Shown here one piece after another: positions 18,287 to 64,000 of a DNA stretch of 64,000 nt. The notes below the pieces were generated by a model. It ran no database searches. It was not told the origin of the DNA and saw only the letters and a program-made list of their open reading frames with translations. The first letter of the stretch is position 1. The number at the start of each line of letters is the position of its first letter. The stretch is from Eledone cirrhosa (lineage: Eukaryota): contig OZ024743.1 in the NCBI GenBank assembly GCA_964016885.1, positions 84,196,001-84,260,000 of the forward strand, in the 5' to 3' direction. The position numbers were made by a program, and so were the translations under genes.

Positions 18287-18472
18287 GTGGATTGGCAGTA
18301 TCGGTAGAGGGTCGGACGCCATGCTTAGCAGCAAAGAGTTACGGCACTTTATGGTTTGAGTTCAAATCCTACCAAGGTTAACTTTGCCTTTCATCCTTAC
18401 GGGGTCAATAAAATAAAGTACCAGTAATGCACTTGGATAATTGCTGGCCTTGTGCCAAAAGTAGAAACAATT
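18287..18472 (+). mobile_element. SINE family A heading the large minisatellite (an inverted partial copy lies at ~18110-18240)
   Basis: Consensus match; its 3' end runs directly into satellite units. Confidence 0.85.
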
Positions 18473-20091
18473 ATAATAACAGGGATAGCAACAGTCATTA
18501 CAATAACAGAGATAGCAACAGTCATTACAATAACAGAGATAGCAAGAGTCAGTACAATAACCGAGATAGCAACAGTCATTAGAATAACAGGGATAGCAAG
18601 AGTCAGTATAATAACCGAGATAGCAACAGTTATTATAATAACAAGGATAGCAACAGTCATTATAATAACAGGGATAGCAACAGTCATTACAATAACAGAG
18701 ATAGCAAGAGTCAGTACAATAACCGAGATAGCAACAGTTATTATAATAACAAGGATAGCAACAGTCATTATAATAACAGGGATAGCAACAATTATAATAA
18801 CAGGGATAGCAACAGTCATTATAATAACAGAGATAGCAACAGTCATTATAATAACAGGGATAGCAACAGTTATTAGAATAACAAGGATAGCAACAGGCAT
18901 TACAATAACAGAGATAGCAACAGTCATTATAATAACAGGGATAGCAACAGTCATTATAATAACAGAGATAGCAACAGTTATAATAACAGGGATAGCAACA
19001 GTTATGGTAACAGGGATAGTAACAGTCATTATAATAATAGAGATAGCAACAGTCATTATAATAACAGAGATAGCAACAGTTATTATAATAGCAGTGATAG
19101 CAACAGTTACTATACTAACAGGGATAGCAACAGTTATTATAATAACAGAGATAGCAACAGTCATTATAATAACAGGGATAGCAACAGTCATTATAATAAC
19201 AGAGTGCAACAGTTATAGTAACAGGGATAACAACAGTTATAATAACAGGGATAGCAACAGTTATAATAACAGAGATAGCAAGAGTCATTATAATAACAGA
19301 GATAGCAACAGTCATTATAATAACAGGGGTAGCAACAGTTACTATAAAAACAAGGATAGCAACAGTCATTATAATAACAGAGATAGCAACAGTTATTATA
19401 ATAACAGGGATAGAAACAGTCATTATAATAACAGAGATAGCAACAGTTATAATAACAGAGATAGCTACAGTCATTATAATAACAGATAGCAACAGTTATA
19501 ATAACAGAGATAGCAACAGTTATAATAACAGGGATAGCAACAGTCATTATTATAAAAGAGATAGCAAGAATCATTAGAATAACAGGGATAGCAACAGTCA
19601 TTATAATAACAGGGATAGCAACAGTTACTATAATAACAGGGATAGCAACAGTCAATATAATAACAGAGATAGCAACAGTTATAATAACAGGGATAGCAAC
19701 AGTCATTACTATAAAAGAGATAGCAACAATCATTAGAATAACAGGGATAGCAACAGTCATTATAATAACAGGGATAGCAACAGTTACTATAATAACAGGG
19801 ATAGCAACAGTCAATATAATAACAGAGATAGCAACAGTCATTATAATAACAGAGATAGCAACAGTTATAATAACAGAGATAGCAACAGTCATTATAATAA
19901 CAGAGATAGCAACAGTTGTAATAACAGAGATAGCAACAGTTACTATACTAACAGGGATAGCAACAGTTATTATAATAACAAGGATAGCAACAGTCAATAT
20001 AATAACAGGGATAGCAACAGTTACTATAATAACAGGGATAGCAACAGTCATTATAATAACAGAGATATCAACATTATTATAATAACATAAT

Positions 20092-20282
20092 TAGGGGGGT
20101 GAATTGGCAGTATCGGTAGAGGGTCGGACGCCATGCATTCCAGCATAGTTACGTCCCTTTACGGTGTGAGTTCAAATCCCGTCGAGGTTAACTTTGCCTT
20201 TCATCATTACGAGGTCGATAAAATAAAGTACCTCTAATGTACTGGGTATTTGCTGGCCTTGTGCCAAAAAGTAGAAACAATT
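20092..20282 (+). mobile_element. SINE family A inside minisatellite
   Basis: Consensus match. Confidence 0.85.
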
Positions 20283-21721
20283 ATAATAACAGGGATAGCA
20301 ACAGTCATTACAATAACAGAGATAGCAAAAGTCATTATAATAACAGGGATAGCAACAGTCAATATAATAACAGGGATAGCAACAGTCATTATAATAAGAG
20401 AGAGCAACAGTTATAATAACAGGGATAGCAACAGTTATAATAACAGGGATAGCAACAGTCATTATAATAACAGAGAGCAACAGTTATAATAACAGGGATA
20501 GCAACAGTTATAATAACAGGGATAGCAACAGTCATTATAATAACAGAGAGCAACAGTTATAATAACAGGGATAGCAACAGTTATAATAACAGGGATAGCA
20601 ACAGTCATTATAATAATAGAGATAGCAACAGTCATTATAATAACAGAGATAGCAACAGTCATTATAATAACAGAGTGCAACAGTTATAGTAACAGGGATA
20701 GCAACAGTTATTATAATAATAGAGAGAGCAACAGTCGTTATAATAACAGAGATAGCAACAGTTATAATAACAGAGATAGCAACAGTCGTTATAATAACAG
20801 AGATAGAAACAGTCATTATAATAACAGGGGTAGCAACAGTTATTATAATAACAGGGATAGCAACAGTCATTATAATAACAGAGATAGCAACAGTTATTAT
20901 CATAACAGGGATAGCAACAGTCATTACAATAACAGGGATAGAAACAGTCATTATAATAACAGAGATAGCAACAGTTATTATAATAACAGGGATAGCAACA
21001 GGCATTACAATACAGGGATAGAAACAGTCATTATAATAACAGAGATAGCAACAGTTATAATAACAGAGGTAGCAACAGTCATTATAATAACAGATAGCAA
21101 CAGTTATAATAACAGAGATAGCAACAGTTATAATAACAGGGATAGCAACAGTTATTATAATAACAAGGATAGCAACAGTCATTATAATAACAGGGATAGC
21201 AACAGTTATTATAATAACATGGATAGCAACAGTTATAATAACAGAGATAGCAACAGTCATTATAGTAACAGATAGCAACAGTTATAATAACAGAGATAGC
21301 AACAGTTATAATAACAGGGAGAGCAACAGTTATTATAATAACAAGGATAGCAACAGTCATTATAATAACAGGGATAACAACAGTCATTATAATAACAGAG
21401 ATAGCAACAGTTATAATAACAGAGATAGCAACAGTTATTAGAATAATAAGGATAGCAACAGTCATTACAATAACAGAGATAGCAACAGTCATTTTAATAA
21501 CAGGGATAGCAACAGTCATTATAATAACAGAGATAGCAACAGTCATTACAATAAAATAGATAGCAACAATCATTAGAATATCAGGGATAGCAACAGTCAT
21601 TATAATAACAGAGATAGCAACAGTTACTATATAACAGGGATAGCAACAGTTATTATAATAATGAGGGATAGTAACAGTCATTATAATAACAGAGATAGCA
21701 AGATTATTATAATAACATAAT

Positions 21722-21912
21722 TAGGGCGGTGAATTGGCAGTATCGGTAGAGGCTCGGACGCCATGCATTCCAGCATAGTTATGTCCCTTTATAGTGTGAA
21801 TTCAAAACCCGTGGAGGTTAACTTTGCCTTTCATCATTACGGGGTCGATAAAATAAAGTACCAGTAATGTACTGGGCATTTGCTGGCCTTGTGCCAAAAA
21901 GTAGAAACAATT
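21722..21912 (+). mobile_element. SINE family A inside minisatellite
   Basis: Consensus match; shares private variants with the 24921 copy. Confidence 0.85.
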
Positions 21913-24900
21913 ATTATAATAACAGGGATAGCAACAGTCATTATAATAACAGGGATAGCAACAGTCATTATAATAACAGAGATAGCAACAGTTATAATAA
22001 CAGGGATAGCAACAGTCATTAGAATAACAGAGATAGCAACAGTCATTATAATAACAGAGATAGCAACAGTCATTAGAATAACAGAGATAGCAACAGTTAT
22101 AATAACAGGGATATCAACAGTCATTAGAATAACAGGGATAGCAACAGTCATTATAATAACAGGGATAGCAACAGTCATTATAATAACAGAGATAGCAACA
22201 GTTATAATAACAGGGATAGCAACAGTCATTAGAATAACAGAGATAGCAACAGTCATTATAATAACAGGGATAACAACAGTCATTATAATAAAAGAGATAG
22301 CAACAGTTATCATAATAACAGCGATAGCAACAGTTATTATAATAACAGAGGTAGCAACAGTTATTATAATAACAGCGATAGCAACAGTTATTATAATAAC
22401 AGGGATAGCAACAGTCATTATAATAACAGGGATAGCAACAGTCGTTACAATAACAGGGATAGCAACAGTCATTAGAATAACAGAGATAGCAACAATCATT
22501 AGAATAACAGAGATAGCAACAGTCATTGTAAAAACAGGGATAGCAACAGTCATAATAACAGAGATAGCAACAGTCATTATAATAACAGAGATAGCAACAG
22601 TCATTATAATAACAGAGATAGCAACAGTTATTATAATAACAGCGATAGCAACAGTTATTATAACAGGGATAGCAACAGTCATTGTAAAAACAGGGATAGC
22701 AACAGTCATAATAACAGAGATAGCAACAGTTATTATAATAACAGAGTAGCAACAGTCATTATAATAACAGAGATAGCAACAGTTATTATAATAACAGCGA
22801 TAGCAACAGTTATTATAATAACAGAGGTAGCAACAGTTATTATAATAACAGCGATAGCAACAGTTATTATAATAACAGGGATAGCAACAGTCATTATAAT
22901 AACAGGGATAGCAACAGTCATTACAATAAAAGAGATAGCAACAATCATTAGAATAACAGGGATAGCCACAGTCATTATAATAACAGGGATAGCAACAGTC
23001 ATAATAACAGAGATAGCAACAGTTACTATAATAACAGGGATAGCAACAGTCAATATAATAACAGAGATAGCAATAGTCATTATAATAACAGAGATAGCAA
23101 CAGTTATAATAACAGAGATAGCAACAGTTACTATACTAACAGGGATAGCAACAGTTATTATAATAACAGGGATAGCAACAGTCATTATAATAACAGAGAT
23201 AGCAACAGTCATTGTAAAAACAGGGATAGCAACAGTCATAATAACAGAGATAGCAACAGTCATTATAATAAGAGAGATAGCAACAGTCATTATAATAACA
23301 GAGATAGCAACAGCCATTATAATAACAGAGATAGCAACAGTTATAATAACAGAGATAGCAACAGTCATTACAATAACAGAGAGCAACAGTTATAATAACA
23401 GGGATAGCAACAGTTATAATAACAGGGATAGCAACAGTCATTATAATAATAGAGATAGCAAGAGTCATTATAATAACAGAGATAGCTACAGTTATAATAA
23501 CAGAGATAGCAAGAGTCATTATAATAGCAGTGATAGCAACAGTTACTATACTAACAGGGATAGCAACAGTCAATATAATAACAGAGATAGCAACAGTCAT
23601 TATAATAACAGGGATAGCAACAGTCATTATAATAACAGGGATAGCAACAGTCATTATAATCACAGAGATAGCTACAGTCATTATAATAACAGGGATAACA
23701 ACAGTTACTATAATAACATGGATAGCAACAGTTATAATAACAGATATAGCAACAGTCATTATAGTAACAGATAGCAACAGTTATAATAACAGAGATAGCA
23801 ACAGTTATAATAACAGGGAGAGCAACAGTTATTATAATAACAAGGATAGCAACAGTCATTATAATAACAGGGATAACAACAGTCATTATAATAACAGGGA
23901 TAGCAACAGTCATTATAATAACAGAGATAGCAACAGTCATTATAATAACAGAGTGCAACAGTTATAGTAACAGGGATAGCAACAGTTATTATAATAATAG
24001 AGAGAGCAACAGTCGTTATAATAACAGAGATAGCAACAGTTATAATAACAGAGATAGCAACAGTCGTTATAATAACAGAGATAGAAACAGTCATTATAAT
24101 AACAGGGGTAGCAACAGTTACTATAAAAACAAGGATAGCAACAGTCATTATAATAACAGAGATAGCAACAGTTATTATAATAACAGGGATAGCAACAGTC
24201 ATTACAATAACAGGGATAGAAACAGTCATTATAATAACAGAGATAGCAACAGTTATAATAACAGAGGTAGCAACAGTCATTATAATAACAGATAGCAACA
24301 GTTATAATAACAGAGATAGCAACAGTTATAATAACAGGGATAGCAACAGTTATTATAATAACAAGGATAGCAACAGTCATTATAATAACAGGGATAGCAA
24401 CAGTTACTATAATAACATGGATAGCAACAGTTATAATAACAGAGATAGCAACAGTCATTATAGTAACAGATAGCAACAGTTATAATAACAGAGATAGCAA
24501 CAGTTATAATAACAGGGAGAGCAACAGTTATTATAATAACAAGGATAGCAACAGTCATTATAATAACAGGGATAACAACAGTCATTATAATAACAGAGAT
24601 AGCAACAGTTATAATAACAGAGATAGCAACAGTTATTAGAATAATAAGGATAGCAACAGTCATTACAATAACAGAGATAGCAACAGTCATTTTAATAACA
24701 GGGATAGCAACAGTCATTATAATAACAGAGATAGCAACAGTCATTACAATAAAATAGATAGCAACAATCATTAGAATATCAGGGATAGCAACAGTCATTA
24801 TAATAACAGAGATAGCAACAGTTACTATAATAACAGGGATAGCAACAGTTATTATAATAATGAGGGATAGTAACAGTCATTATAATAACAGAGATAGCAA

Positions 24901-24920
24901 CATTATTATAATAACATAAT

Positions 24921-25110
24921 TAGGGCGGTGAATTCGCAGTATCGGTAGAGGCTCGGACGCCATGCATTCCAGCATAGTTATGTCCCTTTATAGTGTGAAT
25001 TCAAAACCCGTGGAGGTTAACTTTGCCTTTCATCATTACGGGGTCGATAAAATAAAGTACCAGTAATGTACTGGACATTTGCTGGCCTTGTGCCAAAAAG
25101 TAGAAACAAT
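24921..25110 (+). mobile_element. SINE family A inside minisatellite
   Basis: Near-identical to the 21722 copy. Confidence 0.85.
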
Positions 25111-28100
25111 TATTATAATAACAGGGATAGCAACAGTCATTATAATAACAGGGATAGCAACAGTCATTATAATAACAGGGATAGCAACAGTCATTATAAT
25201 AACAGAGATAGCAACAGTTATAATAACAGGGATAGCAACAGTCATTAGAATAACAGAGATAGCAACAGTCATTATAATAACAGGGATAACAACAGTCATT
25301 ATAATAACAGAGATAGCAACAGTTATCATAATAACAGCGATAGCAACAGTTATTATAATAACAGAGGTAGCAAGAGTTATTATAATAACAGCGATAGCAA
25401 CAGTTATTATAATAACAGGGATAGCAACAGTCATTATAATAACAGGGATAGCAACAGTCATTACAACAGGGATAGCAACAGTCATTATAATAACAGAGAT
25501 AGCAACAGTCATTATAATAACAGAGATAGCAACAGTTATTATAATAACAGCGATAGCAACAGTTATTATAATAACAGAGGTAGCAACAGTTATTATAATA
25601 ACAGCGATAGCAACAGTTATTATAATAACAGGGATAGCAACAGTCATTATAATAACAGGGATAGCAACAGTCATTACAATAACAGAGATAGCAACAATCA
25701 TTAGAATAACAGAGATAGCAACAGTCATTGTAAAAACAGGGATAGCAACAGTCATAATAACAGAGATAGTAACAGTCATTATAATAACAGAGATAGCAAC
25801 AGTCATTATAATAACAGAGATAGCAACAGTTATTATAATAACAGCGACAGCAACAGTTATTATAATAACAGGGATAGCAACAGTCATTGTAAAAACAGGG
25901 ATAGCAACAGTCATAATAACAGAGATAGCAACAGTCATTATAATAACAGAGATAGCAACAGTCATTATAATAACAGAGATAGCAACAGTTATTATAATAA
26001 CAGCGATAGCAACAGTTATTATAATAACAGAGGTAGCAACAGTTATTATAATAACAGCGATAGCAACAGTTATTATAATAACAGGGATAGCAACAGTCAT
26101 TATAATAACAGGGATAGCAACAGTCATTACAATAAAAGAGATAGCAACAATCATTAGAATAACAGGGATAGCCACAGTCATTATAATAACAGGGATAGCA
26201 ACAGTCATAATAACAGAGATAGCAACAGTTACTATAATAACAGGGATAGCAACAGTCAATATAATAACAGAGATAGCAACAGTCATTATAATAACAGAGA
26301 TAGCAACAGTTATAATAACAGAGATAGCAACAGTCATTATAATAACAGGGATAGCAACAGTTATAATAACAGAGATAGCAACAGTTACTATACTAACAGG
26401 GATAGCAACAGTTATTATAATAACAAGGATAGCAACAGTCATTATAATAACAGGGATAGCAACAGTCATTACAATAACAGGGATAGCAACAGTCATTAGA
26501 ATAACAGAGATAGCAACAATCATTAGAATAACAGAGATAGCAACAGTCATTGTAAAAACAGGGATAGCAACAGTCATAATAACAGAGATAGCAACAGTCA
26601 TTATAATAAGAGAGATAGCAACAGTCATTATAATAACAGAGATAGCAACAGTCATTATAATAACAGAGATAGCAACAGTTATAATAACAGAGATAGCAAC
26701 AGTCATTATAATAACAGAGATAGCAACAGTCATTATAATAACAGAGATAGCAACAGTTATTATAATAACAGCGATAGCAACAGTTATTATAATAACAGAG
26801 GTAGCAACAGTTATTATAATAACAGCGATAGCAACAGTTATTATAATAACAGGGATAGCAAGTCATTATAATAACAGGGATAGCAACAGTCATTACAATA
26901 AAAGAGATAGCAACAATCATTAGAATAACAGAGATAGCAACAGTCATTGTAAAAACAGGGATAGCAACAGTCATAATAACAGAGATAGCAACAGTCATTA
27001 TAATAAGAGAGATAGCAACAGTCATTATAATAACAGAGATAGCAACAGTCATTATAATAACAGAGATAGCAACAGTTATAATAACAGAGATAGCAACAGT
27101 CATTATAATAACAGGGATAGCAACAGTTATAATAACAGAGATAGCAACAGTTACTATACTAACAGGGATAGCAACAGTTATTATAATAACAGGGATAGCA
27201 ACAATCATTATAATAACAGGGATAGCAACAGTCATTACAATAACAGGGATAGCAACAGTCATTAGAATAACAGAGATAGCAACAATCATTAGAATAACAG
27301 AGATAGCAACAGTCATTGTAAAAACAGGGATAGCAAAAGTCATAATAACAGAGATAGCAACAGTCATTATAATAACAGAGAAAGCAACAGTCATTATAAT
27401 AACAGAGATAGTAACAGTTATTATAATAACAGCGATAGCAACAGTTATTATAATAATAGGGATAGCAACAGTCATTGTAAAAACAGGGATAGCAACAGTC
27501 ATAATAACAGAGATAGCAACAGTCATTATAATAACAGAGATAGCAACAGTCATTATAATAACAGAGATAGCAACAGTTATTATAATAACAGCGATAGCAA
27601 CAGTTATTATAATAACAGAGGTAGCAACAGTTATTATAATAACAGCGATAGCAACAGTTATTATAATAACAGGGAAAGCAACAGTCATTATAATAACAGA
27701 GATAGCAACAGTCATTATAATAACAGGGATAGCAACAGTCATTACAATAAAAGAGATAGCAACAATCATTAGAATAACAGGGATAGCCACAGTCATTATA
27801 ATAACAGGGATAGCAACAGTTACTATAATAACAGGGATAGCAACAGTCAATATAATAACAGAGATAGCAACAGTCATTATAATAACAGAGATAGCAACAG
27901 TTATAATAACAGAGATAGCAACAGTCATTATAATAACAGGGATAGCAACAGTTACTATAATAACAGGGATAGCAACAGTTATTATAATAACAAGGATAGC
28001 AACAGTCATTATAATAACAGAGATAGCAACAGTCATTATAATAACAGAGATAGCAATAGTCATTACAATAACAGAGATAGCAACAGTCATTACAGTAACA

Positions 28101-28869
28101 AGGATAGCAACAGTCATTACAATAACAGGGATTGCAACAGTCATTATAATAACAGGGATAGTAACAGTCATTACAATAATAGAGATAGCACGTCATTACA
28201 ATAACAGAGATAGCAACAGTCATTACAATAACAGAGATAGCAACAGTCATTACAGTAACAGAGATAGCAACAGCCATTAAAATAACAGGGATAGCAACAG
28301 TCATTGTAACCCTTACAGTGATGTAGGTTAAAAAAATACATTATTAAAGTCTAAAATTATAAATATATATCATGGTCTTCCGTGTTTAGTACATATGGAC
28401 GTATATATATATATATGTGTTTTTCCACATGTGCGTCTTATTTTCATAATCACGCATATTAAACTAGCCTGCTTTTAAATTCCCTTTTTGGCATATTAAT
28501 CAGTGAGATTTTGGTTATCATGTTGGGCTCTGCCGAGGATCGAATTCCAACTGTAACCATCCCCACTGAAAGTTTTCGTGAAATAGTCTTTTTAAGACTA
28601 TACAGAGCATTTGTAGTTGTTCCAAATTGAGGGATGAGTATTTTAGACTTTATTTTACCATGAGTTAAGGCTCTATTGATTTTTCCATGGATTTCACTAA
28701 ATTCTGTTGGATAAATCAATATCCTGATTCTTTTTGAATTGAGTTTGAATTATTTTCCCCACATCTTACGTTAACTATTTTCCCATTTTGACGCTATAGT
28801 CACTTATATATATTATATATTATGGAATACTGTTGGCTTCTTGCTACAATAATTTCTATACTTTTCATT

Positions 28870-43700: not shown

Positions 43701-46700
43701 CACTCTTGACGAGATTCACTGATACTATAAGAGATATCCTTCTTCCATCTTGGCTGTCCGATTTCGTGAATAACCAGGCAGAGAATTCTCAAAATGCTGT
43801 GATTGAGGAAGAGGATCAAAATGGAAACGAAATTAAAGACAATGAGGATAATTACTCTGTAAGTATACTGGCCAATTCTTGATTCATACTTCTCATTTAC
43901 TCTTTAGTATTACTGCATATACTGGTATATAAGCCAAGAAATATGTGACAAAAAAAAAAAAAAACGATGGTAAAATGTGTAGGGGGTGGGATGGCTTATA
44001 CTCAAGGTTAATATTTTGCTGATTTTTACCGACTTCATAATTCTACATAAATGAGGTGCTAAAATATTTTCACTTTGGAAGTGAACATTACACCAGTTTC
44101 ACTTTGGAGGTGAACATTACACTGATTTCACTTTGGAGCTGAATATTACAATGGTTTCACTTGTGACATGAAATTTGTATTTCCTATTGTTTTTGATATG
44201 TTTTGAATGAATATGGCTTTCAAAACAGTCAGAAATTGGTAAAATACCATTACATAATGGAATTGTGAAACATCACTTAAAACATTTAAAATATCAAAAT
44301 ATTAAAACTTCATAAATATATTCTTCACTCATGAGAATTTCAAAATTGCACCATCTAAACGTAATTTGTTGATTACCTGCCTCAGCTTATAAATGGGGTT
44401 TGGATTTTTGCCTATTTGTCAGGCATAAAACAAGGGATTGGCTTATATTTCAATATATATAGTAATTATAATTTGGTCAGAAAGAACCCCAGAACAAATT
44501 TGATGAGCAAAGCCAACTGGCAGGGGGCTCGAAGGAAGACCACAAACAAGATGGTTAGATAATATCCATAAGTTTGGCTAATTTTGCTTGGGTATCCAGC
44601 CAGATCATTTGGAGATGGTTGCTTCTGATAGAACTCTCGAAGGCATGTCTGAGAACTCAGCCCCTATGACCCTATCAGAAATAAAGTGGGTGAAGAAGAT
44701 TCACAATCTTATGGTCTTCAATTCGATTCTCAGACTGAATGATATGTGTTATTGAGCAAGACACTTCATGTCATTTCAGTCTGCTCACCGTCATCACCAT
44801 TTAATGTCAGTCTTCCCTGTTAAGGGTTGGACAGAGCTGAAAAAAAATTAGTTGTGACATCACTAATGTATCATCTTTTGTCTTTTCTTTGGACAACATT
44901 ATATATTGTTGTGTGGGTGACTGCTGGACTCCCACAGAAACACCTTGTGACATGGAAAGGAATTTTCCTGGTGCAAACCCATGGTTAGTCCTGACTGAAG
45001 GGGGTCTATTTTTTATACTAAATACATTTATATTTTGTTTATAATCAGGAGAACATACTTATTGTGTTATTTGGAAGTTATTCACTTCTAAAAGTTAATG
45101 TGTTGACAAGGCTGGATATGGCCTGTTTGAACAAAAAGTAAGGTACCGATTTTCAGATGTTTGACCTGCAGGATTCCAGTTCATGTAGATCATAAACAAA
45201 TATCACCACCTACCTGCACAGGTGCTATCAAATGTGAAAAAAAGTAGAAACAAATACACACCCACATCTTTATTAGTACCATTTTATGTCCACTTTCATA
45301 CAGCATTAGTCTTATGACAACAAAGGTGATTTTGTATAAAAAGATAAAAAGGGTTAACATATTTTACAATGATGGCTTTTATTGTTTTTATTTTCCAGTC
45401 ATCTCTTGAAGGTTCAGTTATTGGTGACCGACGTCCAGCTCAACCACGGCCATTACACCCTGAATATACAAACTATCATCAACAGGTGAAAGCAGTTTCT
45501 AGAAGGTCAGCGATGGCAGGTTATACAGCTGACCATATGGCAGCTAACCACGAGATGCAGTATCCGCCAGGACCGAGATATTCTGCCTCAAATCATGGTA
45601 AACATGTTTACAATTTCTCTATCTGTATTTGTAGCTCTCTTTCATCTTCCTATCTCTCTCTCTCTCCCTCCCACACTCTAGTCTCTCTTATCTCTCATCT
45701 TTCTATTTTGTTGGCATAATTGTCAAAGATACTTTAGTCTTCTGGCTATTTAAGCTTTTTGATACCAGCCCATCCAAAACCACCTATGTTAAAGGGTTCC
45801 TACTGATATTAAAACCTTTCAACATAATTTTATATAAGAAAATATTACAAATAGCATCTTAATCCTAAAGTTACCAACCTGGCCAAAACCAGCTCTGGTT
45901 CTATGAAATAAAAAAAAAACACCCATTTTTAAAGATTCTAATTTAAATTAAAATCTTCTAACATAATTTTATATAAGAACCTTACATTAAGTTTCTTAGT
46001 AATGCAATAATTAGTAATTTTAGTAAATCTTTTCCAAACTTCTTCATTGGATAATTAAAGTACAAAGTATTTCATTAGTAATGAAGTAATGAAAGGGTTA
46101 ATTTCTGTCAATACCACTATTACTATTTGTTTTACTACTACGTTATACCAAGATTACTAAATAAATGTAACTTTGTTTCAGCTGGTTCATTACCTCATGC
46201 TGGTCAAATGTCAGAGACGAACACTCGAGTGAATGATAAACAGAACTGCCTGACTGGAGCAGATATTGAACACTTGAATAATCGACTACATCCCTCTGCA
46301 GACACTCAACATACTTCTGACATGAATTATCAGTCAACCACAGCATCTGTTGATAATGATGATGATGGTAATGGTAGTGTTAGTGTTGATCCTGAAGATA
46401 GTTGTAAGTAAAACATTGAATCTCTAGCTAAGGGAGGCAGACAGCATTTGGGACAGCTAGCCATAGAAAACTTGCCAAATAAATGGTTGGGAGATCTCTT
46501 GAGCTGTGCCATAGATATAACAACCTTCTAAGTATTAGTGATCTAGATTATAAATGATCACATACTACACACTGCAAAGTGGTTGGTGATAAGAGCATCT
46601 AGCCATACAAAACCCTGCTAAAATTAAAGTTGGGACAGCTTTTCAGCTGTGCCAAAGGCAAGTCAACTTCCTTAGTGCTATGATAAAATGTATTTGGTAG

Positions 46701-52377: not shown

Positions 52378-55300
52378 CTTGTGGGGTTGTGGGATCACTA
52401 GTGATATATGATGTTTCTTGGGCATTTTAGACTTAGTGGAGCCATCTCCATGTCTAAACACAACAAAATTTTTCCTCAAGAAGAGAGAGTAAAAAGAGAT
52501 GTTGATGGAGAGAGCCCCCCCCCCAGTATTGAACTGGTACTCTTTTTTTCTATAAACTTCAAAAGGATGATAGGTAAAGGTTACCTCAGTGGGATTTAAA
52601 CTGAGAGTGCAGAGAGCTGGAACAGGTACTGTTAAACATTTTATCTGATGTTCTAACAACTGCCAATTCTCCACCTATCAAAAATCTATAAAACAAATTT
52701 GATCAAAATTTCTTCTCCCTCCTCCGCCCACAATATTTTGAAAAATACCAAGATTAACCTGTAATCCCATTCTGGAACACTAAGATAGCACAAATAGCAT
52801 TGGCACTCAGAATTGAGAAATTGTTTTACATCATTAACTCTTGATGCTAAACCACCTGGTTCTATGATACAAGACTTTGTTTTAAAGTGTTTAGAATTAT
52901 CTAAAAACCTTTCATCATAATTTCATGCATAAATTGGGTTCCAAGCTCAAGCTTCTTTATCATCATCATCATTTAACGTGTTTTCCCTGCTAGCAAGGGA
53001 TGGGTGGGTCTTTACTGACCTAGTCAGTACTCAGAGCTACTGACATCTCAGATATGCTAGGGACCTATATCTCACGTAAACTCCTGTGTTCTACTGACTG
53101 CATTTTATTGTGGCATCAGCACTAGAGATGTCATGTCTGACACAGCTGAAGGATCTTTGCAATCCATTTTTTAGCAAGTTTTCTATGGCTTGATGCACTT
53201 GCTATTTGTGCTATTTAGCTACAGCCCTTTATGTTCTGGGTTCAAATCCTACTATGGTCAACTTTACTTTACATCGTCCAGAGTTAATATAATTCACTTT
53301 CTCTCTCCACAAAATGTTGGCTTTGTGCCTAAATCAGAAATCATTATTTTAATGGTATTTTGTTACTGATGCCAGGAAGCACCACAATGGTATTCCATTC
53401 TGTAGAATCTGTTTGTGTTTTCAGCTGCCACCAAGAGGTCCACCAACAGTTATGATGAATTCTCCATCAATAGCTACCATAGCTAAAAACAGACAGTTAA
53501 CATCTAGTGCTTTCAGGAGCTCTCCAACTATACAGAACCACCAGAAGGATGCAGAACCTACAAACAGCAAAGTTAGATTCTTTCTTTCTTCATTCCAATA
53601 TGGGGGGGGGGGGGGGGGGGTCTCCCCCATCTCGGCATCATTTGGAGGAAATTGACTGTTAGGGGATAGGGGACACTGGAAGCATCAGCAGGAACCAACC
53701 TGAAAAGGAAGTGGTCTCAGTCAAGTCCTGGTATTTGGCTATCTGCTGCTCCTCTGCCCAGAGTTGTTTCCGAAGTGACACAGTTGGAGGCAAAGAATGT
53801 GTTACAGTACACAGAATCCCAAATTAGAGATTAATATCCCTTGAATGGGAAGAGGGTTATTCTGTATGGGCGCTTGCCAACACCACAATTGAGGCCAGCA
53901 GGCTTCAGATGTAATGGGAAACCGACCGCATCAAAGCTTCTTCTGATGATGTCATTTAAGGCAGTTGGATAGGGTGTCGGTCTGTGACTACACAGGTTGG
54001 GTACCATGTCTCGTACATTGCATATTTTAGCATGGTTTCTGCAGCTGGTTGCTCTTCCTAATGCCAACCACCCTACAGAGTGTACTACATGCATTTTATC
54101 ATGGCACCAGCACTACCACCTTACAGTGTGTTCTAATGTATTTCTATAGTGTGGTGTGTCATATGAATGGTTTTACGTTTATAATGCAGATAGTATTAGA
54201 GATACTGATGTATTTATATGAACTAGTGTTGTATCCTATCTACAGCTGAATTCTTTACTGTTCATAATACTGATGGTGTCAAATAAGTGTCTATTTAAAA
54301 GTAATGAAATGTGACTGAATCGTATTAAAATACAAATTTTCACTTGTTCATTACTATAAACATTTAAATTAACCCAAACTGTTTATATATATGTATCAAA
54401 ATTAAATTTTGAGTTAAAAACTCAGAATAGTCCCTTATAATCAAATTAGCCCAATGAAAAAAATTTCTGAGCTTTTTATAACAAAGTAAAGAGAAAAGAA
54501 CACACACACACACGCACGCACGCACGTGTGTGTGTGTGTGTGTGTGTGTTAAAACCAGAAGGGATATAAAACTGCCAAGGTGAAGAATATATTAAATATA
54601 GATAATACGGTTTATAGAACTCAATTAAAAGGATAAATTAAGATATAGGAACCGACTGACAACTGTCAACATCCAGACAGCTTTAGGGTAGAACTGTTCC
54701 CCAATTCAATGAGGAGACATTGATTCAAATGCTTAACAATGGATGTTCGACCAATCCTCATACTAAATTTCTTAGGAAACTATAATACACACGTGTTGAA
54801 AGAGGAAAAGCACATGGGTATCACGTGCTGGGTGGTACAAACAACATACAGCTGCTAAAGAAAATAGCAGCCAGAACCGTTTGATATAGTAAAAGCTCAA
54901 CAAAAATATAGGAGCTTAATTTATCAAAATTAAATTTTGATTTGAACACACACACACACATATATATATGTGTGTGTTCTCTCTTTACTTTGTTATATAT
55001 ATATATATGTTTGTATCTATGTACACAGATAAAGTAACTTTACTTTAATTTTTCAGGTAAGCAGTTTTACTGGGAAAGATGCTTCTGAACAACTACCTGT
55101 AGTGGTTGTAACTCCACCAAGCAATATTTCAGTGTAAGTAACTGCTTTATGTGTCTTTTGTGTTTGTAACTGGTCTGTGTGTGTCTTGTGATTGTAACCC
55201 CCAGGTATTCAGTGTAAGTAACTGGTCTGTGTGTGTCTTGTGATTGTAACCCCCAAGTATTCAGTGTAAGTAAGTGGTCTGTGTGTGTCTTGTGATTGTA

Positions 55301-58300
55301 ACCCCCAGGTATTCAGTGTAAGTAACTGGTCTGTGTGTGTCTTGTGATTGTAACCCCCAGGTATTCAGTGTAAGTAACTGGTCTGTGCGTGTCTTGTGAT
55401 TGTAACCCCCAGGTATTCAGTGTAAGTAACTGGTCTGTGTGTGTCTTGTGATTGTAACCGCCAAGTATTCAGTGTAAGTAACTGGTCTGTGTGTCTTGTG
55501 ATTGTAACCCCCAGGTATTCAGTGTAAGTAACTGGTCTGTGTGTCTTGTGATTGTAACCCCCAGGTATTCAGTGTAAGTAACTGGTCTGTGTGTGTCTTG
55601 TGATTGTAACCCCCAAGTATTCAGTGTAAGTAACTGGTCTGTGTGTGTCTTGTGATTGTAACCCCCAGGTATTCAGTGTAAGTAACTGGTCTGTGTGTGT
55701 CTTGTGATTGTAACCGCCAAGTATTCAGTGTAAGTAACTGGTCTGTGTGTCTTGTGATTGTAACCCCCAGGTATTCAGTGTAAGTAACTGGTCTGTGTGT
55801 GTCTTGTGATTGTAACCCCCAGGTATTCAGTGTAAGTAACTGGTCTTTGTGTCTTGTGATTGTAACCCCCAGGTATTCAGTGTAAGTAACTGGTCTGTGT
55901 GTGTCTTGTGATTGTAACCCCCAGGTATTCAGTGTAAGTAACTGGTCTGTGTGTCTTGTGATTGTAACCCCCAAGTTTTCAGTGTAAGTAACTGGTCTGT
56001 GTGTGTCTTGTGATTGTAACCCCCAGGTATTCAGTGTAACTGGTCTGTGTGTCTTGTGATTGTAACCCCCAGGTATTCAGTGTAAGTAACTGGTTTGTAT
56101 GTGTGTGTCTTGTGATTGTAACCCCCAGGTATTCAGTGTAAGTAACTGGTCTGTGTGTCTTGTGATTGTAACCCCCAGGTATTCAGTGTAAGTAACTGGT
56201 CTGTGTGTGTCTTGTGATTGTAACCCCCAGGTATTCAGTGTAAGTAACTGGTCTGTGTGCGTCTTGTGATTGTAACCCCCAGGTATTCAGTGTAAGTAAC
56301 TGGTCTGTGTGTGTCTTGTGATTGTAACCCCCAGGTATTCAGTGTAAGTAACTGGTCTGTGTGTGTCTTGTGATTATAACCCCCAGGTATTCAGTGTAAG
56401 TAACTGGTCTGTGTGTGTCTTGTGATTGTAACCCCCAGGTATTCAGTGTAAGTAACTGGTCTGTGTGTGTCTTGTGATTGTAACCCCCAAGTATTCAGTG
56501 TAAGTAACTGGTCTGTGTGTGTCTTGTGATTGTAACCCCCAGGTATTCAGTGTAAGTAACTGGTCTGTGTGTCTTGTGATTGTAACCCCCAGGTATTCAG
56601 TGTAAGTAACTGGTCTGTGTGTGTCTTGTGATTGTAACCGCCAAGTATTCAGGGTAAGTAACTGGTCTGTGTGTCTTGTGATTGTAACCCCCAGGTATTC
56701 AGTGTAAGTAACTGGTCTGTGTGTCTTGTGATTGTAACCCCCAGGTATTCAGTGTAAGTAACTGGTCTGTGTGTCTTGTGATTGTAACCCCCAGGTATTC
56801 AGTGTAAGTAACTGGTCTGTGTGTCTTGTGATTGTAACCCCCAGGTATTCAGTGTAAGTAACTGGTCTGTGTGTCTTGTGATTGTAACCCCAGGTATTCA
56901 GTGTAAGTAACTGGTCTGTGTGTCTTGTGATTGTAACCCCCAAGTATTCAGTGTAAGTAACTGGTCTGTGTGTGTCTTGTGATTGTAACCCCCAGGTATT
57001 CAGTGTAAGTAACTGGTCTGTGTGTCTTGTGATTGTAACCCCCAAGTATTCAGTGTAAGTAACTGGTCTGTGTGTCTTGTAATTGTAACCCCCAGGTATT
57101 CAGTGTAAGTAACTGGTCTGTGTGTGTCTTGTGATTGTAACCGCCAAGTATTCAGTGTAAGTAACTGGTCTGTGTGTCTTGTGATTGTAACCCCCAGGTA
57201 TTCAGTGTAAGTAACTGGTCTGTGTGTGTCTTGTGATTGTAACCCCCAGGTATTCAGTGTAAGTAACTGGTCTGTGTGTGTCTTGTGATTGTAACCCCCA
57301 GGTATTCAGTGTAAGTAACTGGTCTGTGTGTCTTGTGATTGTAACTCCAGGTATTCAGTGTAACTGACTGGTCTGTGTGTGTCTTGTGATTGTAACCCCC
57401 AGGTATTCAGTGTAAGTAACTGGTCTGTGTGTGTCTTGTGATTGTAACCCCCAAGTATTCAGTGTAAGTAACTGGTCTGTGTGTGTCTTGTGATTGTAAC
57501 CCCCAAGTATTCAGTGTAAGTAACTGGTCTGTGTCTGTCTTGTGATTGTAACCCCCAGGTATTCAGTGTAAGTGACTGGTCTGTGTGTGTCTTGTGATTG
57601 TAACCCCCAGGTATTCAGTGTAAGTAACTGGTCTGTGTCTGTCTTGTGATTGTAACCCCCAAGTATTCAGTGTAAGTAACTGGTCTGTGTGTGTCTTGTG
57701 ATTGTAACCCCCAAGTATTCAGTGTAAGTAACTGGTCTGTGTCTGTCTTGTGATTGTAACCCCCAAGTATTCAGTGTAAGTAACTGGTCTGTGTCTGTCT
57801 TGTGATTGTAACCCCCAGGTATTCAGTGTAAGTAACTGGTCTGTGTGTGTCTTGTGATTGTAACCGCCAGGTATTCAGTGTAAGTAACTGGTCTGTGTCT
57901 GTCTTGTGATTGTAACCCCCAAGTATTCAGTGTAAGTAACTGGTCTGTGTGTGTCTTGTGATTGTAACCCCCAAGTATTCAGTGTAAGTAACTGGTCTGT
58001 GTCTGTCTTGTGATTGTAACCCCCAGGTATTCAGTGTAAGTAACTGGTCTGTGTGTGTCTTGTGATTGTAACCCCCAGGTATTCAGTGTAAGTAACTGGT
58101 CTGTGTCTGTCTTGTGATTGTAACCCCCAAGTATTCAGTGTAAGTAACTGGTTTGTGTGTGTCTTGTGATTGTAACCCCCAGGTATTCAGTGTAAGTAAC
58201 TGGTTTGTGTGTGTCTTGTGATTGTAACCCCCAGGTATTCAGTGTAAGTCACTGGTCTGTGTGTGTCTTGTGATTGTAACCCCCAGGTATTCAGTGTAAG

Positions 58301-61300
58301 TCACTGGTCTATATTTGTCTTAGAGTGGTTGTAACATCTCGAAGTACTTTTTTCAATGTAAGTAACTGGACTATGTGTCGTGTAGTGATTGTAATATCAC
58401 CAAGTATTAATAGGAGCGGGCTTGGAAAATCGTTAATTTTTCTAGGTTGTCTCCCTCTTAATTTTATAACATGTTATTTCTTGTAAAGTGCATTTTTTTG
58501 TCATGTATAATGTTTTTTTTTTATGTTTAAAGAAAACATAGGAATGTCATAGGAATGCTACTACTTAAAATGAAATATCGTTGAAGATAGATGATAAGCA
58601 AAATTTAATAACTGGTGGTGGGGTTTTCTGAAAAATTATTGGGGTGAGGGTGGGGATTATTCGAGATCCTGAGATGAATGAACTGATCTATGTGTGTCTT
58701 ATAGTGGTTGCAACAACACCAAAAGTATTATTTCACTGTGGGTAACTGCTATGTGTGTGTTTATCCTGTAGTGGTTGTAACATTATCATGTTATTAATTC
58801 TCTATGTCCTATTACCTGTAGTAATTGTAACACCTCCAAATATTAACTCAGTGTAAGCAACTGTTATATATATGTCCTATTACGCTTTATGATCATTTGA
58901 TGGTAGGTGGACTACTACTACATAGGTAGTAGTAAAACTTGTAGCACTATACTGTATGCTAGTTCTATGATGGTTATGGTGAGAGTAGTAGTTCGGTGAT
59001 GATGGTGGTTGTAGTAGAGCTACACTTTATTATTTTGAAAATAATCAACAATTTTGAGATATTTAGTAAGGGTGCAGATTGGTAGAATTGTCTGAGCATC
59101 AGAGGAAATGCTTTACAATATTTATTCCAGCTCTTTATATTCTGAGTTCAAATCCTTCTCAGGTCAACTTTGCTTTTCATCAGACAGTTGTATTATTGAA
59201 TCCCTTCAAATTGATTATTTTCAAAATTAGTTGAAAATCATTGGCAGTGTTTTGAAACGAAAGAGTTAAACTCAGCAATTTTTCTTGTAGTCAGAAAACA
59301 AAAGCAGCAACAATAACAGCAGCAACAACGACAACACCACCAGCAGCAGCAACTACATCATCATCAAAAACAAATTATTTTGTTGAAAACCCCCTGCTGA
59401 CTGAATCAAGTGTGGCTGTTCCCGATTCATCACCATCTCTAGATCGTCCCATGTCTAGCGGGAAGATGAAGAGAGAGAAAAGTTATTCAACAAGAGGAAC
59501 TCTTATAAGAGATGAAGATGAAGAAGTTGAGGTAATGAAAGATTCAAATCACACATCTCTTTTGTTTTGCTCTTGGTTCACTGTTTATCATGTGATATTC
59601 TTTGTGTGAGGTCTGTGTCTATCTTTGTCATCATCACTGCATCATTCAAAACCCTCCATGCTTTCCAAAATGTGCCAACACTACACCTGATATTCTCCCT
59701 CCATACATGTGTGTGTGTCTGTGTGTATATCATGACTCATACACGTTTCACTTTCCTGACATTTGTACATTATTCTATGTACTATACATGCACCTTTGAT
59801 GAGTTGTAGTGCACCTGAGCACTGTACCCAATAATTTCCATTATTATTAATTAATGTCTGTTTTTCCATGCTTGAATGGGTTTGTACTGGTTGTCACAGA
59901 TGCCAGCTAAGTGCTTTATCGGTGCTGCTATACTCCTTTCCTACTACCAAACACTTTACAGTGTTTTTTATGGTTTATACAGTGGATGCTCTTCCTAACA
60001 CCAACCACTTTATAGTGTACTGGGTGCATTCTATCTTGTGCCCCAACACTAGGAAGTGATCATGTCCTTGACACAGCTGATAGTTCTCTCACCCCCTTTG
60101 TTTTCTATGGTTTCTATGATAGATGCTCTACCTAACACCACCTACTTTAAAGTGTGTACTGGGTGTTTATTGTGCCACAAGCATTAGAATATTGTGTGTT
60201 AGTTTTTATCTGTAACTTTCTTTTGCTTTATCTGTCTATCTATATATATGTGTGTGTGTGTATATTCATTTGATATGGCTAAGTAGTGAGTCTGGTTTGA
60301 CTTGCACACTAGCAGGATCATCAGAAACTCCAGAGTAAAAAGGTTCATCACTTAGCCATTGTAAATATTTAAACTTTTCTTCGGTATGGAGGACTTTTTC
60401 TCATGTCCATCAATAATACACACACACATATATATATATACACACATATACACACATCTGTCTGTCTACCATATCTAAGTCTCTCTCACTATATCTATAT
60501 ATCCCATAAAACAGCCAGTGCATCTAAAGACTGACTTTGTCTTGCCTGTGAAGGATATGCCGAAGTTCTCTTTTACAACACCCGAAAACACCTTTTCTAA
60601 ACAATCCGAAAAATTGACTTCAACACCTGTTACTACTTCTGTTACCACATTTGGTAGTGGAAGCTCTCAGTCGACTGTAATATCAACAACAGCAAGTTCT
60701 GCTGTCAGTATTACAAACTTTACTACATCAGAATCAGGTTTTAAATTCTCTAGTCCCATACCAACGACACTACCAACTACAAACTTGGTACAGGAAGGGT
60801 CTCCTTCGCTTTCGGTGAGTTAATACTTTCATTCTTTGACTCTTTTTTTTTTCGTTAACATATTTCTAATCAAAGATGCTGTCTATAATTTTCAAATTAA
60901 TTTTTAGATAATCAAGAATTTGGTAGGGTTTAGAAAGTTTTCTGTCTAATTTTCAAATCATTTTGAAAATAATCAAAACTTTAGTGGGACTTAGTGAATT
61001 TTCTCATTAAGCTGGTTTTTGGAACATAACTTAACAAAAGTTCTTATATAAAATTATGATGGATGGTTTTTAGATGAATATAAACATTTCGAAATAAACA
61101 TCTTAATCTTGTAGAACCAGGGGTAGTTTAAAACTATTTTGGAATGAAAAGGGTTAAATAGAAATATTTAATTTACATCAAACCCTTTCACAGTAAAGAT
61201 CCAGTACACTTGGTAAATTGTTAGTGTTGGTACCACAAGAAAATGCACTCAACTCACTCTGTAATGTAGCATTGGTCTTACAATAAAATGCTCCCAGCCC

Positions 61301-63164: not shown

Positions 63165-64000
63165 TTAACCCTTTAGCATTCAAACCGACAAGATTATGTC
63201 CCCTTTCATTTATTCAAACCGACAAAAACCGACATTTAATACCACACGGAGATCTCCTTCTAAAAATAAACATTGACATCATCGAAATTACTGCGAGATA
63301 AAGCCCTTACGCGCGAAAATTAACTCTTAGTATAGTTAAAGAACTTGCGATAACACGTGTTTTTAATGTTGAAAGTGTAACGGCTTCCGAAAGTAGCGAC
63401 AACGAATTTGAAGGTTTTACGTCCGATGACATTCGAGATCAAAAAGAAACAGAAGATAATATCAGTGATTTATCTTCCAACGAATCAGATATATTTATTT
63501 CTGATATATCTGATGATGATGATAGTCACTTTGAAAGTGAAAGAGATTTGACTGACACCATTGAAAAAACACCAACGTGGTTGAAAGAAACAACACCGAT
63601 ACATGTTTCGATTTTACTGAAAATATTGGACCACAAAACACAGTACCACCCGGTGCTAAAGCACTGGATTATTTTTTTTTTATTTTTACCACAAACTTTC
63701 TTCGAAGTTGTGGCAGAAGAGACAAATCGCTATGCACAACAACAGATTTCTAATATCGGAAAACCCGATCTGTTATGGCGTCCGACAGATTCTGCCGAAA
63801 TGAAAGCGTTTTTTACCATAAACATTGTTTGGTATTAAACAATTTCCACGACTGTGGAATTATTGGAGTACTGATATAAGGTTTGGTGACCCTTATATAT
63901 CTAGTATTATGGCAAAAACGAGATTCATCAAATTAAACCAGTATTTCCATCTGGTTGATACTTCAAATGCCCCTGGTAGAAATGAATCAAATTACGACCC
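63165..64000 (+). mobile_element. piggyBac-family DNA transposon, left end and frameshifted transposase (PGBD-like), truncated by window end
   Basis: TTAA|CCCT terminus at 63165; subterminal AAACCGACA repeats; acidic N-terminus SDNEFEGFTSDD; F.LFL......VAEETNRYAQQ, W.PT..AEMKAFF, GIKQFP..WNYWSTD, IMAKTRF..L.QYFHL motifs; at least three frameshifts. Confidence 0.9.

Follow-up and report, generated by a model that had tools for sequence, protein, structure and literature searches.

Why should an intron carry some sixty copies of its own splice donor, and which of them does splicing use? The question arises at a locus of the octopod Eledone cirrhosa, in a window of 64,000 nt (contig OZ024743.1, positions 84,196,001 to 84,260,000, forward strand; the window means this whole stretch, and positions below count from its first letter), where intron 11 of the predicted Nup153 gene contains a tandem array of a 50 or 52 bp unit. 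The array is a large mollusc case of an already known type of repeat, the exon–intron boundary minisatellite, as represented by the human F7 repeat and by the ‘mirages’ of amphioxus. We consider it probable, at roughly 0.8, that it is a boundary minisatellite of octopod Nup153 in which the first donor is used and the copies are silent or rarely leak. Searches of the literature on Nup153 in octopus, and on intronic minisatellites or tandem repeats of octopus, gave no paper on this locus.

Host Gene and Repeat Array

The assembly is 3.0 Gb in size and the DNA of the window is repeat-rich. Twelve exons (37702–59531) join into a reading frame of 537 codons without a stop, and 11 of the 11 introns between them are of the GT–AG type. 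The Nup153 domain of Pfam is matched by exons 6 and 7 (E-values of 0.023 and 4e-5, each below the curated cut-off as a single exon), and the RanBP zinc finger is matched by two downstream exons (peptide search, with four of seven peptides giving a match). Identity of the model to other octopod Nup153 proteins is 407/532 positions for Octopus bimaculoides, 411/535 for O. sinensis, 406/534 for O. vulgaris and 384/533 for Argonauta hians, and the remainder of the protein was placed over the following 25 kb by tblastn with the O. bimaculoides sequence. Together, the domain matches, the octopod identities and the tblastn placement identify the host gene, judged from its sequence, as octopod Nup153, the identity also given in an earlier annotation of this DNA from its letters alone (the sequence-only reading). 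Small corrections to that reading concern the limits of exon 11, the start of exon 12 and the position of the last old donor (58852/58853) (Table 1). Searches for proteins like the exon 12 peptide, and for shorter relatives, gave no match; one candidate relative, P0001, was dropped as an unrelated repeat protein.

Intron 11 is 4157 bp long, and 3142 bp of it belong to the young, homogeneous part of the array. Tandem Repeats Finder (TRF) placed the array at 55166–58321, with a period of 52, 61.4 copies and 95% matches. Cutting it at its donors gave 61 young donor positions, spanning 55214–58296, and the donor-to-donor intervals (n = 63) are 52 bp in 41 cases and 50 bp in 15. The 9-mer AGT/GTAAGT (the slash marks the splice junction) is exact at 58 of the 61 young donors and GTAAGT is retained at 59, in good agreement with the roughly 60 tandem, nearly all intact, donors first counted in the sequence-only reading. 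The same reading had described an AG nine nt upstream of most donors and neighbouring cassettes 41–43 nt apart, and both features were recovered. A CAG lies nine nt 5′ of the donor in 43/61 units, complete cassettes of the form ag/GTATTCAGT/gtaagt are found in 41/61, and 18/61 units carry CAAG, which gives an 8 nt spacing. From a donor to the next acceptor the distance is 37–47 nt, being 41 or 43 nt in 38 of 42 cases. Each unit also contains a (TG)4–5 run.

A 165 bp query from the array gave 29 matches in the genome, every one at this locus (one candidate scored), and the array therefore behaves as a locus-specific minisatellite and not as a dispersed satellite family. The idea that the array is an assembly artefact is exceedingly improbable, and no point in its favour was found. 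The 60 full young units fall into 24 types, some variants being restricted to one region of the array, and older, diverged copies lie beside them. In contigs of run X1, which may be the source sample, depth was 223 on the unit versus about 8 on unique flank, a difference that argues against an artefact but does not measure copy number. Run X6, a reduced representation made by restriction-site-associated DNA sequencing (RAD-seq), does not cover the unit.

The Exon 11 Junction as Source of the Repeat Unit

The unit aligns with 37 nt at the end of exon 11 and with some 22 nt at the start of intron 11, which bears out the derivation from this junction proposed in the sequence-only reading. Identity to the junction is 25–28 of 37 exonic and 16–19 of 22 intronic positions in all four donor-bearing copies compared. 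Five older, diverged copies (A to E) are found 3′ of the young array (Table 1). The terminal one, copy E, had already been picked out for its likeness to the exon; it reads LPVVIVTPPNINSV and is the closest of the old copies to exon 11. A 10-mer at 58806 and again at 58874 flanks this copy, which puts the ancestral unit at about 68 bp. Three of the six edge or old copies (the truncated first unit, B and D) have no donor.

A TAC triplet occurs twice, once ahead of the duplicated stretch of exon 11 and once where the intron part ends, and this suggests that the first duplication was guided by a 3 bp microhomology. The likely start of the array was one tandem duplication of about 68 bp across the exon 11/intron 11 boundary, after which one shortened derivative would have expanded to 61 homogeneous units, probably by unequal exchange. 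This order of expansion is likely, as is the near-neutrality of the copies, and the older copies record the steps from a single duplication to a homogenised array. The old copies resemble the exon 11 end of this species more than that of the Octopus orthologues (LPVVVVTPPSNISV versus LARVFATTPQTASV), so that the junction duplication probably postdates the split from Octopus. In a further relative (run X5), an orthologue of exon 12 was seen (37 other letters, 14 gaps) and the array unit had no depth, a weak negative because contigs show presence only.

Table 1. Positions of Nup153 exons, the authentic donor, the young array and its older copies in the window
Feature	Position	Strand	Remarks
Nup153 exon 10	53425..53571	+	Phase 0 end; gives AAA at rebuilt exon 11 junction; 537-codon model, tblastn
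Nup153 exon 11	55057..55133	+	77 nt, phase 2 end; starts AG/GTAAGC; last 37 nt are the repeat seed
Authentic intron 11 donor	55134..55139	+	AGT/GTAAGT, score 8.9; 9-mer identical to 58/61 array donors
Young homogenised minisatellite	55166..58321	+	50/52 bp unit, 61 donor positions; first unit truncated, without own upstream donor
Old copy A	58319..58363	+	Longer, 62 bp spacing; donor AAT/GTAAGT at 58358
Old copy B	58379..58412	+	Interrupted before donor by ~260 bp of unrelated DNA
Old copy C	58698..58743	+	Decayed donor ACT/GTGGGT at 58738
Old copy D	58765..58815	+	Donor deleted; seen in the sequence
Old copy E, terminal	58812..58883	+	Donor AGT/GTAAGC at 58853
Nup153 exon 12	59291..59531	+	Model, tblastn; run X4 contig exact over exon

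Relation to Known Boundary Minisatellites

The 37 bp variable number tandem repeat (VNTR) in intron 7 of the human F7 gene has a first unit that spans the exon boundary, and the donor is repeated down the intron; minigenes showed that only the most upstream of 5–9 identical donors is used, even when the downstream sites are stronger (PMC1557585). In F7, as in the octopod array, the exact donor is reiterated and identical pseudo-donors follow the real one. The two differ in scale, with 5–9 units and 4 exonic bases in F7 and 61 young units and about 30 exon-derived bases here, and the octopod array, unlike that of F7, is followed by five older copies that have diverged, and most of its donors have an AG nine nt upstream (PMC1557585). 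Other human minisatellites at the donor side of a junction, with 10–25 pseudo-donors, are those of IFI6 (6-16), CBS intron 13, LMNB2 and PDGF (PMC1557585).

The ‘mirages’ of amphioxus (Adh3, TnC, the globin genes BflGb6 and BflGb9, and PGBD5) have a homogenised interior and diverged edges, and are spliced normally (PMC3087553, PMC3902484). The octopod array shares the homogeneous interior and the diverged edge copies (PMC3087553), which is the turnover pattern of mirages. It belongs to another phylum and has 61 units compared to 3–6 in BflGb6, and length polymorphism has been shown for the mirages (PMC3087553, PMC3902484). The traits that place the octopod array in this class are thus a unit spanning the exon–intron boundary, an authentic signal that is reiterated, and a single locus with a homogenised interior and diverged edges.

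Splicing of Nup153 likely uses the first, authentic donor, the copies being silent or leaking rarely into decay-bound transcripts. First-donor use was established by minigenes for F7 (PMC1557585) and is inferred for the octopod array, where the analogy makes it likely. Tolerance of the array is probably explained by the first donor prevailing and by the stop codon that any leak would run into. The array offers a ready system for studying how the first donor is selected against 60 identical competitors.

Splice Signals and Predicted Products

Splice signals were scored with matrices made from the 22 acceptors and 24 donors of this one gene, which are small and distinct from MaxEntScan; real acceptors were scored leave-one-out. 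The array donors score 8.9, equal to the real exon 11 donor. The pseudo-acceptor common to 37 units scores 3.1, and 22 of 22 real acceptors are higher (3.4–15.5, median 9.2). The T fraction of the pseudo-acceptor tract is 0.40, compared to a mean of 0.63 for real acceptors.

These values bear directly on a role proposed in the sequence-only reading, that the array is a bank of alternative 9 nt microexons. Such microexons would insert the residues V-Y-S at the exon 11/12 junction, perhaps only in certain tissues (e.g., neurons). The phase arithmetic behind the proposal is correct, as a 9 nt cassette placed after exon 11 gives V-Y-S in frame and without a stop. Intact, in-frame cassettes of microexon length between an AG and a GT are present in 41 of the 61 units, the donor downstream of each equals the real one in strength, the G that creates the 9 nt frame is derived and in the majority, and with 41 copies small leaks per unit would add up. 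Microexons typically have a strong upstream pyrimidine tract. The pseudo-acceptor has no T-rich tract and lies below every real acceptor, and the insert is absent from all seven annotated isoforms of three Octopus species, in which the array may also be absent, so that neither a strong tract nor conservation was found. The 18 CAAG units give 8 nt cassettes that lead to a frameshift and a stop, and the site falls where the protein is of low complexity and evolves fast. With the acceptor this weak, and the defining G both derived and polymorphic, the proposal is unsupported and a microexon bank is distinctly unlikely.

Other predicted products were examined in the same way. Extension of exon 11 to an array donor brings a stop at the next codon. 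A 33 nt cassette in old copy C (58705–58737) would be in frame, with an acceptor scoring only 1.6, and a 31 nt cassette in old copy E (58822–58852) would give a stop.

A second proposed role was that of a recursive-splicing ladder, by which intron 11 would be removed stepwise at AG/GT points. Such points are present in 43/61 units. Joining exon 11 to an array AG rebuilds the donor AGT/GTATTC, which scores 1.5, less than any of the 24 real donors, and agrees with the consensus at only 3 of 9 positions, so the combination expected of a ratchet point, a strong acceptor joined to a rebuilt donor, was not found among these sites (acceptor 3.1, rebuilt donor 1.5). Neighbouring steps would be just 37–47 nt long. 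Since the intron measures only about 1 kb without the array (4157 minus 3142 bp), there is also nothing long for a ladder to shorten. These results give the ladder no support, and we regard it as very improbable.

The third role put forward was that of a decoy for the U1 small nuclear ribonucleoprotein (snRNP); the transcribed array would then have effects on splicing or on premature polyadenylation that reach beyond intron 11. GTAAGT occurs 60 times in the 3.2 kb of the array, and is absent from 10,440 bp of ordinary intron sequence in the same gene. The RNA of the array shows no excess of folding over shuffled sequences (z = +0.87), so these U1 sites would be open, and local binding of U1 to the array is likely, in a passive manner. 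Donor-bearing arrays are plentiful elsewhere in the genome. Three AGGTAAGT motifs at 20–70 bp spacing were matched 10,110 times genome-wide versus 1,585 times for a reversed control, a count of units to which a few large arrays contribute most (8,259 matches on one strand versus 1,851) and which was not taken as evidence of enrichment. On contig C1 (19499839–19507703, minus strand) there is a 66 bp array of about 119 units, most of them with TATAG/GTAAGT, a perfect acceptor–donor junction motif. The flank upstream of this array is rich in T and resembles an acceptor, and inspection of both ends by eye revealed no exon. Such arrays are thus common here, and 60 sites on one pre-mRNA would make a poor global sink for U1, whose abundance far exceeds the 60 sites of a single nascent RNA. 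A decoy function is hardly credible on these grounds.

Transcript Data

Data from run X4, whose kind is unrecorded, were treated as RNA solely because a contig fits both splice boundaries of exon 12. This contig of 2914 nt matches exon 12 exactly (59291–59531, 0 differences, record positions 1215–1455) and continues off the genome on both sides; being bounded exactly by the exon, it was taken as a spliced transcript. The runs were compared over 58244–59700, a region with a single young unit, the older copies and exon 12. Depth of X4 was 0 across this young unit together with copy A (58244–58390) and across copies C to E (58636–58978). The X4 data fit direct splicing of exon 11 to exon 12, and speak against a main form in which exon 11 runs on into the array.

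The 1214 letters of the contig 5′ of exon 12, set against the 1370 coding bases of exons 1–11, are too coarse a measure for 9 nt. In annotated proteins, the exon 11 segment has equal length in 7/7 isoforms of the three Octopus species, and an insert at its end was found neither in these nor in the Argonauta protein; the array may be missing from all of these species. A squid-like sequence, P0007, is too diverged at the end of exon 11 to judge an insert.

Conservation of the Repeated Signals

If the repeated donors were maintained by selection, then their positions might be expected to change less than the rest of the unit, a check named in the sequence-only reading. In the 60 full young units, the 9 donor positions account for 3 distinct changes (listed by hand) and the remaining 43 positions for 17 (binomial p = 1.0), and selective retention of the donor positions was not borne out. 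The G that defines the 9 nt cassette is the most often substituted base (18/60 full units). Its ancestral state is A; the G is a derived and polymorphic, though majority, state. Among the four donor-bearing copies, a pre-set window from −3 to +6 contains 5/36 minority letters compared to 45/212 elsewhere (p = 0.38), and when the copies are set against the exon the figures are 5/36 versus 61/203 (p = 0.067).

Several results weigh against silent, near-neutral copies. The foremost concerns a 17 nt donor core, which is better kept among the four copies (7/68 versus 43/180 minority letters, p = 0.02) and also in comparison with the exon (7/68 versus 59/171, p = 1e-4); as this window was picked after viewing the data, omits the three donor-less copies and takes in the constraint that acts on the real donor, the conservation signal is read as weak. 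The common pseudo-acceptor stands at the 87th percentile of 560 intronic AGs, i.e., it is weak but not random, and four variants of it, each found in a single unit, score 3.5–5.8 and so fall within the real range, with all of these scores depending on matrices of only 22–24 sites. The X4 contig is compatible with a 9 nt insert before exon 12, and contigs lose rare variants. Finally, IFI6 and CBS use two proximal downstream pseudo-donors (PMC1557585); the same use in the octopod array, which has the higher copy number, would lead to a stop at the next codon.

A wider claim is that the array actively shapes Nup153 splicing. On this view it multiplies about 60-fold the donor in competition with the one rebuilt at the exon 10/11 junction, its derived AG allows in-frame V-Y-S to leak through as a microexon being born, and inherited repeat number sets how often exon 11 is included; this is unlikely. 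A 9 nt insert or an effect of copy number, if true, would amount to the birth of a microexon or to repeat-tuned recursive splicing in a nucleoporin gene.

Exon 11 as a Candidate Recursive-Splicing Exon

The donor-like start of exon 11 itself was overlooked in the sequence-only reading. The exon 10/11 junction rebuilds AAA/GTAAGC, which scores 8.1 with the gene-specific matrix, compared to 8.9 for the exon’s own donor and 2.2–12.1 for real donors, and exon 11 alone among the 22 exon starts listed begins with GTAAG. By its layout and its rebuilt donor, exon 11 is a candidate recursive-splicing exon (RS-exon). Whether an RS-exon is included depends on how the rebuilt donor competes with the exon’s own donor (PMC6224609). 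Like the annotated RS-exons that are repressed by the exon junction complex, exon 11 has a partial donor at its start and a donor-like 9-mer is rebuilt; unlike them, it is known from sequence alone, and the likeness concerns the exon and not the array (PMC6224609). Among human exons 3.6% qualify as putative RS-exons, and 93.8% of those are constitutive (PMC6224609), so that coincidence is the likelier cause of the layout.

If exon 11 were a functional RS-exon, use of the rebuilt AAA/GTAAGC would drop it and shift the frame, and the amplified donors of the array would favour its inclusion. The closeness of the two scores and the singular exon start speak for this, as do the competition described for such exons (PMC6224609) and the predicted result of skipping exon 11, a frameshift with a stop after 38 further codons. 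The segment starts with valine in the three Octopus species, hence with GT if the junction is shared, and the array was not seen in the X5 contigs, though as evidence this is weak. That downstream pseudo-donors influence the inclusion of an RS-exon is itself conjecture. We therefore hold this explanation to be decidedly improbable, and retain the boundary minisatellite with first-donor use.

Other Repeats in and around Nup153

Apart from the array, at least six further minisatellites lie in introns of Nup153, and such arrays therefore arise readily in this gene. They are found in the window at 44068–44162, at L011 7220–7630 and 8858–9495, and at L012 3874–4177 and 5935–7460, with units of 29, 35, 36, 37 and 57 bp. 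Those with 35 and 36 bp units start 150–210 bp into their introns, away from the junction. In intron 10, 5′ of the exon 11 acceptor, there are two short (CA)n...(TG)n palindromes (54500–54550 and 54945–54978).

The gene also has a coding 51 bp repeat, in the exon of FG (phenylalanine–glycine) repeats about 12.6 kb beyond the end of the window (L012 4629–4969; 6.7 copies, 93% match), and this is a young expansion of FG units. The fifth zinc-finger exon (L011 8450–8647) corresponds to a 69-residue segment that is absent from O. bimaculoides isoform X3, and by analogy it may be alternatively spliced here too. Intron 15 (window 63300–64000 and L011 1302–3096) contains fragmented open reading frames, presumably related to a piggyBac-type transposase. 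On the 5′ side of Nup153, a 27 bp minisatellite of 373 copies (9.8 kb) with a strong A skew occupies 18470–28309 of the window.

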